A DNA stretch of 64,000 nt from NCBI RefSeq assembly GCF_041248615.1, contig NZ_CP158426.1; one strand, given 5' to 3'. The first letter of the stretch is position 1, and each line of letters starts with the position of its first letter. Origin of the DNA: Escherichia coli. Lineage in GTDB: Bacteria > Pseudomonadota > Gammaproteobacteria > Enterobacterales > Enterobacteriaceae. The position numbers and the translations under genes are program-made. The notes below the pieces were generated by a model. It saw only the letters and a list, made by a program, of their open reading frames with translations, did not search any database and was not told where the DNA came from. Below, in pieces: positions 43,732 to 45,027 of this stretch.

Positions 43732-44517
43732 TTAGTTCCGGATGTTTAAACGTGATATGCGCGGAGCCCTTCTTAAAGTATCTGATACTGAACATCTCAT
43801 CTTCATAGCACTCTTTACCCTGAACAGACTGGATGTGCCATCCTGATGAATGGTTATGTTTTTCCCGTTGCCGGGGATGGGGGTGCCGCTGAACAGATGT
43901 AGCATTCTTTCCAGGTCGGCGAGTCGGTCAGTCTGTTGTCCGGTGATAAGATGAAATCCCCACCGGTCCCATCTCACCAGATTGTTGATAATGATTTTAC
44001 TTCCAAATTTACAGGGAGAGTTGGTTTTATAATTCCAGCTCAGTTCCCTGAAGACGTTAATCACTCCCCGCTTAAACACCTCATCCTTGTTCTGGTGCAC
44101 TTGTTCAAATGTGCTCAGAATGTTCGCTTCGCTGATTTCCTGAAAATTATCGTACTCCAGTGAGCGGTACCATGTATCACGGGCCTGTGCATCCATTAAG
44201 GAAAGCATCCCTGAACGTTGCATCAGGTCACGCCAGATTTCACGGTCAAGGTTGCGGGTAATGGCTTTCATTGCGGTTTCCTGTTTCTCCTTCAGCCAGC
44301 AGCCACAGCGAAAATCCTGTTTCATGGCCCAGTCCGGGGCGGTTTTACCTCCAATACTTTCCGTCAGAATTGAGATTTTAGCCAGTTGCCGGATAAGTGT
44401 GTCGATTGGCAACAGTGTACTCTTTCGTACAGCCAGAATGTGGCAGACTGAGGTGGAACAGATAACGTCCGTATGCCCGCTGACCACCTCCGGGCGGGAG
44501 AGTGTGGTATCTGACAT
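43732..44517 (-). CDS. Hypothetical protein at island terminus (possibly DUF4942-like)
   Basis: 261-aa ORF downstream of the cbtA-like gene; family guess from recalled gene order in similar islands only. Confidence 0.45.
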   Translation of the reverse strand: MSDTTLSRPEVVSGHTDVICSTSVCHILAVRKSTLLPIDTLIRQLAKISILTESIGGKTAPDWAMKQDFRCGCWLKEKQETAMKAITRNLDREIWRDLMQRSGMLSLMDAQARDTWYRSLEYDNFQEISEANILSTFEQVHQNKDEVFKRGVINVFRELSWNYKTNSPCKFGSKIIINNLVRWDRWGFHLITGQQTDRLADLERMLHLFSGTPIPGNGKNITIHQDGTSSLFRVKSAMKMRCSVSDTLRRAPRISRLNIRN

Positions 44518-44601
44518 AATCGTTTTTCCTTTTTGCAGATAAATGAAAACGCCAGCTCTGTTCAGGCTGGCGTCAGGAGAATGAAGTCTGGTGAGTGAGA
44601 T

Positions 44602-45027
44602 TCACCGGTTCTGGTGCAGAAGTTGCAGTTGGTGCAGGGTACGGATATCCTCCCTGGCCTGTTCGATACAGGGCAACAATGCTGCCGAATCCGTTTTATC
44701 CTCATCGTTGTCGAAAATAATTCCGGACCCGCAGTCGATATTGTCCTGCAGCCACGCAATGAGGATATCCAGCGCTGTTTCAGTGGTTAATGGCATCACG
44801 CTCTGTATCACTGTATTGTCTTCCGGCAACTGATGAGAGCTGGCAGAAGTCGCCGGTGTTTCGGTAGCGTCACGTTCATCCACCACGCGGAGTGAATAAC
44901 CGTATTCAGCGACCTTGTTAATCAGTTCAGTGAGCTCAACACCATCAATGTCAACGACAATTCGCCCTATATTCAGTGCCTGTACGTTAACGCTGTCTGC
45001 TTCCAATGTCAGGGCCAGTTTCATCAT
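44602..45027 (-). CDS. Hypothetical acidic protein (YeeW-position gene)
   Basis: 141-aa ORF directly downstream of, and overlapping by 4 bp, the cbtA-like toxin gene, the position occupied by yeeW in CP4-44. Confidence 0.5.

Follow-up and report, generated by a model that had tools for sequence, protein, structure and literature searches.

A probable short YeeW-family gene and a decayed DUF4942 gene downstream of cbtA at the end of an Escherichia coli genomic island

The CbtA/CbeA type IV toxin–antitoxin system has been described with two components, and most cbtA loci lack a yeeW-type third gene. DUF5983 proteins are always located 3' of CbtA and were scored as a recurrent downstream partner in a large toxin–antitoxin survey (PMC10790755), and PF19419 has a glyoxalase/bleomycin-resistance fold (bioRxiv 10.1101/2024.01.30.577995). 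The AntiFam entry ANF00264 was recently proposed to be a probable real, dimer-forming domain encoded beside cbtA/cbeA; in the context described, a DUF5983 protein with an 'incomplete C-terminus' is followed by ANF00264, and programmed frameshifting was put forward to explain fused versus split annotations (doi 10.1093/bioadv/vbag160, Bioinform Adv 2026). In the canonical order of E. albertii / E. coli-type loci, cbtA is followed by yeeW (N- and C-terminal domains), DUF957 in another frame and DUF4942. Homologs named Aec77, Aec78 and Aec79 are taken to belong to the same block.

The window analysed here is a 64,000-nt stretch of E. coli contig NZ_CP158426.1. Two ORFs of 141 and 261 residues, described in the first-pass annotation as unassigned genes, are found in it as reported, and their Pfam matches and occurrence on other contigs indicate that they are not chance ORFs. 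The label 'unassigned' does not apply to them, since by Pfam matches, RefSeq annotation and the protein names in homolog clusters both belong to named families (DUF5983_N, DUF957, DUF4942), and RefSeq annotates them already. We read the locus, with a probability of roughly 0.8, as the conserved 3' accessory block of a CP4-44/CP4-57-like genomic island, with a genuine short YeeW-family gene and a dead DUF4942 gene. The features are as follows:

42335..43504, minus strand: ynjB, the first backbone gene (ORF list, RefSeq)
43511..43517, no strand: island/backbone junction (compared with a K-12-type genome in which the ynjA-ynjB site is empty)
43518..43720, no strand: terminal segment of the island (likeness to related island ends; DUF4942 3' homology lost)
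43721..44517, minus strand: DUF4942 pseudogene, of which the 261-aa ORF (43732..44517) is the frameshifted reading (Pfam; 'frameshifted' in RefSeq)
43838..43839, minus strand: loss of 1 nt past codon 226 (pairwise alignment to the intact ES1 allele)
44538..44574, minus strand: terminator-like hairpin (ACGCCAGC...GCUGGCGU) followed by UUUUCAUUUAU (RNA fold)
44602..45027, minus strand: 141-aa YeeW-type ORF, with DUF5983 N-domain, linker and DUF957 in a single frame (ORF list, Pfam, alignments)
44602..44799, minus strand: DUF957 segment of this ORF (separate 65-aa protein WP_085975623.1 in RefSeq)
44800..44853, minus strand: linker of this ORF (DNA alignment with E. albertii / E. coli-type loci; tblastn domain map)
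44854..45015, minus strand: DUF5983_N domain (PF25638), residues 5-58 of the 141-aa protein (Pfam E=2.5e-27, profile positions 1-56 of 56)
45024..45398, minus strand: cbtA-family toxin gene, 124 aa, upstream operon partner (Pfam CbtA_toxin E=4.6e-62, full-length)

Homology of the ynjB/ynjA backbone to other E. coli stops at about 43517; thus, both ORFs lie inside the island and adjoin its end, in agreement with the terminal position given earlier. Compared with the empty K-12-type site, the ynjA stop codon is retained as TTA on the plus strand (43511-43513) and is followed by GGAA/AGAA microhomology, and this copy of the island is inserted between ynjA and ynjB. Positions 43520-43693 display 72-76% identity to the termini of related islands, which border on a tRNA-Phe 3' repeat, and the final ~180 bp of the island resemble tRNA-Phe-type island ends. 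No tRNA genes were found within the window, so that here the island ends without an adjoining tRNA gene; for the opposite end of the island, the window contains no ynjA sequences. Related islands have a toxin–antitoxin pair (AbiE or ParDE) just before their end. The upstream gene order in the island is DUF932, antirestriction, JAB and DUF987.

The start codon of the 141-aa ORF shares 4 bp (ATGA) with the stop codon of cbtA (RefSeq product WP_000854697.1) and is preceded by a Shine-Dalgarno sequence, GGAGG, 6 nt upstream, in line with the coupled translation that had been suggested from the overlap. The product is acidic, as previously stated (pI 4.2; 25 D/E versus 9 K/R). Residues 77-141 are identical to WP_085975623.1, a 'DUF957 domain-containing protein' which starts with GTG (V77) and continues with ATG (M78), and the segment displays 92% identity to canonical DUF957; the Pfam release used contains no DUF957 model. 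Canonical loci have ~275-285 additional nucleotides, encoding the PF19419 C-domain, at the point between 44805 and 44804. PF19419 was not matched in any of the three minus-strand frames of this region even at E<=10, and a tblastn query with the YeeW C-domain found no match in the window. The assignment to the YeeW family therefore stands for the N-domain, which is joined in frame to DUF957, and not for the C-domain. The AlphaFold2 monomer model of the 141-aa protein has a pLDDT of 49.8, too low for a fold search, and gives neither domain structural support of its own, and a PDB sequence-profile search with the family returned no significant match.

RefSeq splits the ORF into 'DUF5983, missing C-terminus' and the 65-aa DUF957 protein. 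Taken literally, this PGAP reading makes the first 166 nt the dead remnant of a yeeW gene and leaves DUF957, translated from V77 or M78, as the sole functional product. We consider it rather unlikely, although several observations agree with it: DUF957 is a separate ORF in another frame in canonical loci, K-12 yeeW has a stop codon after the linker, all such loci are annotated as split in RefSeq, and the strongest constraint falls on the DUF957 part. Indeed, the DUF957 frame has a pooled dN/dS of 0.13, whereas the other two frames have values of 1.19 and 1.71 and both contain stop codons; the DUF957 coding frame is real and not a spurious shifted frame. The N-domain (dN/dS 0.2-0.75 in most pairs and 1.2 in one) and the linker (0.3-0.9), for both of which the counts are small, are under weaker constraint than DUF957, so the data also fit a model in which DUF957 alone matters.

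Against the split reading, all six alleles keep the whole 140/141-codon ORF without interruption, at dS up to 0.48, and dN/dS of the N-domain is mostly below 1. Among alleles differing at more than a dozen sites, dN/dS of the whole ORF is 0.19-0.43, compared with 0.5-2.3 in the other two frames. Moreover, the fused ORF has the strong Shine-Dalgarno sequence and the overlap with cbtA, while M78 lacks a clear Shine-Dalgarno sequence. A 121-aa protein from another lineage, 55% identical, likewise combines the N-domain and DUF957 in a single ORF overlapping cbtA by 4 bp, with a shorter linker. Since the ORF is intact across alleles and this 121-aa version exists elsewhere, the 141-aa ORF is probably a real gene. 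The exact 141-aa sequence is present on 217 public contigs and the exact 65-aa DUF957 sequence on 995, and a 141-nt probe spanning the joint between the N-domain and DUF957 was matched at a coverage of at least 80% in 915 of 5,426 complete E. coli genomes. Judging from the gene contexts described in doi 10.1093/bioadv/vbag160, DUF957 probably corresponds to AntiFam ANF00264. In canonical loci, an A5 run (TCAAAAACG) marks the point relevant to the published idea of programmed frameshifting; such a frameshift was rejected for the window as needless, both domains being in frame in the DNA.

Between the DUF957 stop codon and the DUF4942 start lies the terminator-like hairpin (-24.3 kcal/mol, z=-3.06 versus shuffles), which is kept in the other aligned alleles. 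It was missed by a simple terminator scanner, and a promoter/terminator scan gave counts no better than in shuffled sequence. With its start on the cbtA stop codon and a strong Shine-Dalgarno sequence in front, the 141-aa gene is presumably expressed along with the toxin and forms the last cistron of cbeA-cbtA-yeeW; the hairpin follows it.

Domains were mapped by tblastn in 80 loci, a sample anchored on cbtA. About half of them contain no yeeW, DUF957 or DUF4942, and in ~30 DUF4942 is found 3' of cbtA without yeeW, mostly beginning ~130 bp past the toxin gene. Erwinia, Winslowiella and Rouxiella have the N+C form without DUF957. In this cbtA-anchored sample the YeeW N-domain is seen nowhere but right after cbtA, and the cbtA stop codon often overlaps its start codon; a yeeW start adjacent to or overlapping cbtA is also found in K-12 and in loci L084-L088. 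Most cbtA loci of other Enterobacterales lack yeeW and the K-12 copies are truncated, so YeeW cannot be essential for controlling the toxin. That the 141-aa ORF arose by a simple, recent deletion was ruled out: its linker has strongly diverged from the canonical one, and the 55%-identical lineage is built in the same way. The short allele may have arisen through loss of the C-domain, or else the canonical form through its gain, both two-domain forms being present in divergent lineages.

Our best guess is that the acidic 141-aa protein, which is probably a dimer, acts as an optional accessory partner of CbtA. The N-domain might then be the invariable part that is tied to the toxin, and the domain at the C-terminus, PF19419 or DUF957, the exchangeable one. 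A more specific version is, in our view, doubtful: the N-domain would dock onto CbtA, or onto the CbtA targets FtsZ and MreB, and carry interchangeable C-domains, and cbeA-cbtA-yeeW would be a three-component system in which the third protein tunes the toxin and the 141-aa allele is one working variant. The C-domains would in that case be the glyoxalase-like PF19419, binding small molecules, or DUF957, forming dimers.

DUF4942 is an abundant family (2,164 clusters at 50% identity), whose members usually stand alone and sometimes precede a class-I SAM methyltransferase domain. Homologs of 460-468 aa have a C-terminal MTS-type methyltransferase domain, and standalone copies are found in phage, beside integrase and near N6_N4 methyltransferase genes. 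The family also matches phrog_6263 'DNA methyltransferase', and its viral structure matches include a 531-aa BFVD 'Type I restriction enzyme'. No methyltransferase domain is found in the window ORF or in the intact 280-aa allele, and no methyltransferase gene stands beside DUF4942 in the island loci inspected. The AlphaFold2 model of intact DUF4942 is confident (pLDDT 89.6); a Foldseek search of the PDB with it returned no match at E<0.3, a sequence-profile search of the PDB no match below E=0.7, and the same kind of search with a methyltransferase-fused homolog no significant match. Intact DUF4942 is thus a mobile-element module without a solved structural relative. Since it sometimes precedes the class-I SAM methyltransferase domain, its role is most likely nucleic-acid-related and methyltransferase-associated, a role which would be lost in the window copy.

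These associations also bear on the possibility that neither gene is related to the toxin and that both belong to an island establishment or anti-defence module, together with the upstream antirestriction (KlcA/ArdB-like), RadC-JAB, DUF932 and DUF987 genes, DUF4942 being a methyltransferase-derived DNA-binding factor. The order of these upstream genes, the fusion of DUF4942 to methyltransferase domains in homologs and phage families, its standalone copies in phage and beside integrases, and its occurrence after cbtA without yeeW in many species are all compatible with such a module. We nevertheless regard it as unlikely. The YeeW N-domain keeps to the position directly past cbtA in the cbtA-anchored sample; no known anti-defence family was matched, and PADLOC gave no match for the 141-aa protein, intact DUF4942, canonical YeeW or DUF957. 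Furthermore, the terminator-like hairpin separates DUF4942 from the toxin operon, and the two ORFs may therefore not share one role. In NCBIfam, no match was obtained for the five proteins queried, intact DUF4942 or canonical YeeW. Clear homology to characterised proteins unrelated to the island was looked for and was not encountered.

The accessory-block reading treats the 261-aa ORF as a dead DUF4942 gene; the ORF of the first-pass annotation exists, but as the frameshifted reading of a pseudogene that has lost 1 nt and is truncated at its 3' end, not as an intact gene. At the deletion site, the window reads GGATG|GCACA and the intact ES1 allele GGATG[A]TCACA. The Pfam match (PF13708, E=4.1e-44) covers only profile positions 1-137 of 190, compared with 1-189 in the intact 280-aa allele, and homology to intact DUF4942 3' ends disappears from about 43749 downward. 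The near-invariant P275 and L278 are lost; N267, invariant in the family alignment, is lost in any frame. The last ~16 codons were removed, by the same or a separate event, along with the toxin–antitoxin pair (AbiE or ParDE) of related islands. A sequencing error was ruled out as the cause of the frameshift, the identical 261-aa product being present on 262 independent public contigs. This persistence could point to a functional shortened variant, as could the 226 native residues that the product keeps, among them its helical N-terminal part and the invariant W95 and D201. Such a variant is nevertheless very improbable: the Pfam match stops short, H254 and N267 are lost in this reading together with the last two strands and helix in the confident model, the tail consists of 35 out-of-frame residues, and the 3' end is clipped in the correct frame too. 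Moreover, the out-of-frame tails of other 261-aa clusters differ from this one, suggesting further frameshifted alleles.

For the window locus itself the significance is small: both ORFs fall into catalogued, uncharacterised families and one of them is dead, and passengers of this kind downstream of cbtA are ordinary at E. coli island ends. Of wider use is a correctable annotation, as ~17% of complete E. coli genomes carry the in-frame N-domain+DUF957 gene under purifying selection, which RefSeq splits into a pseudogene and a small gene and the second half of which AntiFam probably lists as spurious. Moreover, since YeeW-type genes constantly begin at the stop codon of cbtA, a third CbtA/CbeA component is a cheap hypothesis. 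DUF4942 stands out as an abundant mobile-element protein with a confident predicted fold and no solved relative.

Relative to the described CbtA/CbeA system, the 141-aa gene is a third cistron directly past cbeA and cbtA. The context reported for ANF00264 is also that of the window, and dN/dS of DUF957 supports a real coding frame here. The DUF4942-methyltransferase fusions of phages and other mobile elements (460-548 aa) contain full-length DUF4942, with 32-36% identity over the aligned region; unlike them, the DUF4942 of enterobacterial islands is standalone (about 280 aa) and has no SAM-binding domain. The comparisons proposed at the outset, with DUF4942, YeeW and K-12 CP4-44, were well chosen. 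K-12 CP4-44 YeeW (b2006, 64 aa) has the same position, the 4-bp overlap with cbtA, the N-domain and the same linker type (STETPATYASPHQL), and past a stop codon the same frame continues into the C-terminal 30 residues of DUF957. It differs in this stop codon after the linker and in an internal deletion of DUF957, where the window has an intact 141-codon ORF, and in having no DUF4942 downstream; K-12 yeeW is a decayed copy of the short N-domain+DUF957 type. The canonical block of yeeW (DUF5983, ~162 aa), DUF957 and DUF4942, exemplified by L0008-L0010 by the EDL933 LEE, orf54-56 of the Shigella SRL island, JJ1887 and E. albertii loci, has the same families in the same order after cbtA, with 85-95% protein identity in the shared parts. 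In the canonical form, the PF19419 glyoxalase-like C-domain is present and DUF957 is a separate ORF, whereas the window allele is ~275-285 nt shorter, lacks the C-domain, has a broken DUF4942 and encodes the N-domain and DUF957 as one protein.

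The 141-aa ORF at the island end is a conserved, selected and probably translationally coupled third cistron after cbtA. As the first-pass annotation had it, this ORF and a 261-aa ORF lie between cbtA and ynjB:

42335..43504, minus strand, ynjB (ORF list)
43732..44517, minus strand, 261-aa ORF (ORF list)
44538-44574, conserved hairpin then U-tract, between the DUF957 stop and the DUF4942 start
44602..45027, minus strand, 141-aa YeeW-type ORF (ORF list)
44602..44799, 65-aa "DUF957 domain-containing protein" WP_085975623.1 (RefSeq)
44862..45027, "DUF5983 family protein, missing C-terminus" pseudogene (RefSeq)
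45024..45398, minus strand, cbtA (ORF list)

The reported 4-bp overlap with cbtA is real, the start ATG sharing ATGA with the cbtA stop, and GGAGG lies 6 nt upstream of this ATG; the product is acidic, as described (pI 4.2; 25 D/E vs 9 K/R). The earlier placement at the island terminus and the probable co-translation both stand. The label "unassigned" does not, since Pfam names both families, and the 261-aa ORF is a pseudogene. DUF5983_N (PF25638) is the sole Pfam match of the 141-aa ORF (residues 5-58, E=2.5e-27), and the 261-aa ORF matches DUF4942; both genes thus fall inside known kinds, with nothing beyond catalogued families.

The two RefSeq pieces of the 141-aa ORF share one frame. YeeW-N, YeeW-C (PF19419), DUF957 and DUF4942 were mapped by tblastn on 80 cbtA loci from various species, and the canonical order in E. 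albertii and E. coli-type loci is cbtA, yeeW (N+C, ~162 aa), DUF957 in another frame and DUF4942. The ~275-285 nt that separate the linker from the DUF957 start there are absent from the window allele, whose joint falls between 44805 and 44804, and DUF957 thereby comes into frame with the N-domain. PF19419, which has been classified as a glyoxalase/bleomycin-resistance fold similar to toxoflavin lyase (bioRxiv 10.1101/2024.01.30.577995), is encoded in no frame of the window (Pfam frame scan and tblastn).

Several results favour a gene over a remnant for the fused ORF. The exact 141-aa sequence occurs on 217 contigs, the clusters containing it have 297-518 members, and 915 of 5,426 complete E. 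coli genomes match a 141-nt probe across the joint at >=80% coverage. Six alleles were compared (the window, strain ES1 and four retrieved through exact protein matches): all six keep 140/141 codons with dS up to 0.48. Leaving out the near-identical window/ES1 pair, the whole ORF has a dN/dS of 0.19-0.43 vs 0.5-2.3 in other frames; the DUF957 part gives 0.14-0.30, the N-domain mostly 0.2-0.75 and the linker, with its few sites, 0.3-0.9. Pooling ten DUF957 sequences, one of them 55% identical, gave 0.13 in the DUF957 frame vs 1.19 and 1.71 elsewhere, with stops in both other frames. Moreover, locus L088 encodes a divergent 121-aa protein (P0112) that also combines N and DUF957, joined by a shorter linker, and its gene likewise overlaps cbtA by 4 bp. 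Between this gene and DUF4942, L088 carries a 185-aa ORF (804-1361) with no family match, which E. coli loci lack.

As to the origin of the short allele, a recent deletion is argued against by the strongly diverged linker. N+C forms without DUF957 occur in Erwinia, Winslowiella and Rouxiella. Since N+C and N+DUF957 forms are both found in distant lineages, the short allele may have arisen by C-domain loss or the canonical one by C-domain gain. A 161-aa protein named DUF5983 family protein (P0085) joins the window-type linker to a C-domain missing its first ~20 residues, which suggests recombination of short and canonical types at the LTTE motif. Six loci with cbtA 90-94% identical and E. coli-type yeeW/DUF957 genes (L004, L006, L073, L076, L081, L082) are filed as Collinsella, Lachnospiraceae, Segatella copri, Clostridiales and Arthrobacter (metagenome bins or genomes); they most likely stem from contaminating Escherichia DNA in those assemblies.

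The 261-aa ORF is an inactivated DUF4942 gene. Its Pfam match covers profile positions 1-137 of 190 only, vs 1-189 in the intact 280-aa ES1 allele. Alignment places a 1-nt deletion after 43839 (codon 226), beyond which the ORF adds 35 out-of-frame residues; even frame-corrected, the protein ends early (…AHITFKHPELMES*) and lacks the conserved last helix (PELVDRLNDIIAKHYP). Of the residues invariant in a 69-sequence family alignment (W95, D201, H254, N267), the product lacks H254 and N267, and N267 is missing in any frame. The identical sequence on 262 contigs rules out assembly error and shows the lesion to be inherited; RefSeq also labels the gene frameshifted. DUF4942 has been lost repeatedly with the yeeW-type gene retained, because in L084-L087 (E. 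coli, 140-aa allele) the N+DUF957 gene is intact and DUF4942 is missing or a fragment; an autotransporter gene or rhuM comes next there.

DUF4942 comprises 2,164 clusters at 50% identity (E<=0.001), mostly standalone proteins of 255-300 aa. In a few homologs of 460-468 aa, a class-I SAM methyltransferase domain (MTS type) makes up the C-terminal part; the DUF4942 domain itself matches phrog_6263 "DNA methyltransferase", and its fold matches a viral protein of 531 aa named "Type I restriction enzyme". The confident AlphaFold2 model (pLDDT 89.6, pTM 0.81) has a helical N-terminal and an alpha/beta C-terminal half. Standalone members from distant taxa occur in a phage, beside an integrase and near N6_N4 methyltransferase genes. 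In Enterobacterales, conservation of the island module ends with the DUF4942 gene, beyond which lie toxin-antitoxin pairs that vary (ParDE-like, AbiE), a further integrase or genes of the chromosome; no methyltransferase gene adjoins it in the island loci inspected there, and PADLOC gave no DUF4942 match. Our best guess for intact DUF4942 is a nucleic-acid-related role tied to methyltransferases of mobile elements, a role that is lost in this window.

The hairpin at 44538-44574 (-24.3 kcal/mol, z=-3.06) resembles a terminator closing the cbeA-cbtA-yeeW operon; a simple terminator scanner did not list it. Backbone homology stops at ~43517, directly after the ynjA stop codon and inside a 4-nt GGAA/AGAA microhomology relative to the empty K-12-type site, and only 29 of 5,426 complete E. 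coli genomes carry an island at this ynjA-ynjB junction. The final ~180 bp of the island (43520-43693) are 72-76% identical to related-island ends in ~1,100 genomes. The end regions concerned, that of the window next to ynjB and those of islands that integrate at tRNA-Phe, are:

43511-43720, window
3440-3720, cbtA locus L089
3440-3760, cbtA locus L090

In the two genomes examined, JJ1887 and JNEC-KY171, the end segment adjoins a tRNA-Phe 3' repeat, and an AbiE or ParDE pair separates it from DUF4942. The window has neither this pair nor the DUF4942 3' end, which would fit an internal deletion, and a search of all 64 kb found no tRNA gene. The joining to ynjA looks like secondary-site integration or later rearrangement.

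Elsewhere in the island, a 214-aa ORF (45906-46550, minus strand; RefSeq hypothetical WP_045146861.1) lies between the DUF987 gene and cbeA, with no match in Pfam or NCBIfam; it overlaps the long 162-aa cbeA reading, and RefSeq starts cbeA later (122 aa). From ~50300 onward and beyond the window (NZ_LT599825.1 2390000-2430000), the island is a large mosaic with aerobactin genes (iucABCD-iutA; iucD frameshifted), sitABCD, a YadA-like adhesin, sodC and many degraded IS elements and pseudogenes.

We tentatively propose, at a probability of about 0.3, that the 141-aa protein acts as an optional, accessory partner to CbtA; the N-domain would then form its constant part, linked to the toxin, and DUF957 would be a C-terminal dimerising module. 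That most of the 80 cbtA loci lack yeeW by tblastn counts against this proposal. A 2023 survey found DUF5983 downstream of CbtA without exception in every sequence type apart from ST11 (PMC10790755), and a table of the SRL island lists the same block as orf54 (YeeW/L0008), orf55 (DUF957/L0009) and orf56 (DUF4942/L0010) (PMC6980539). A 2026 paper noted that AntiFam ANF00264, classed as spurious, yields a confident homodimer model and is always beside DUF5983, cbtA and cbeA, in one case after a DUF5983 with an incomplete C-terminus; it proposed a programmed frameshift (doi 10.1093/bioadv/vbag160). Matching gene context suggests that ANF00264 is DUF957. The value added here is small: the data support true coding for both the fused N+DUF957 ORF and the DUF957 frame, which matters for how RefSeq and AntiFam annotate a locus that about one in six E. 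coli genomes carry.

At canonical loci (L005 4573-5080), the DUF957 frame is open across the entire yeeW C-domain region. Natural 207-234-aa alleles (P0046, P0058-P0062; one cluster with 118 members, one named aec77) pass from the C-domain frame to that of DUF957 immediately behind 'GLSK', whose codons span an A5 run (TCAAAAACG). They bear on the published frameshift idea, and the run seems too short for efficient slippage. In contrast to that proposal, the window needs no frameshift, its N-domain and DUF957 being already in frame. Compared with K-12 CP4-44, which has no DUF4942, the window gene has the same linker type as the 64-aa K-12 yeeW, where a stop codon and an internal deletion precede the DUF957 C-terminus in the same frame; judged from these sequence features, K-12 yeeW is evidently a decayed copy of the window allele type.
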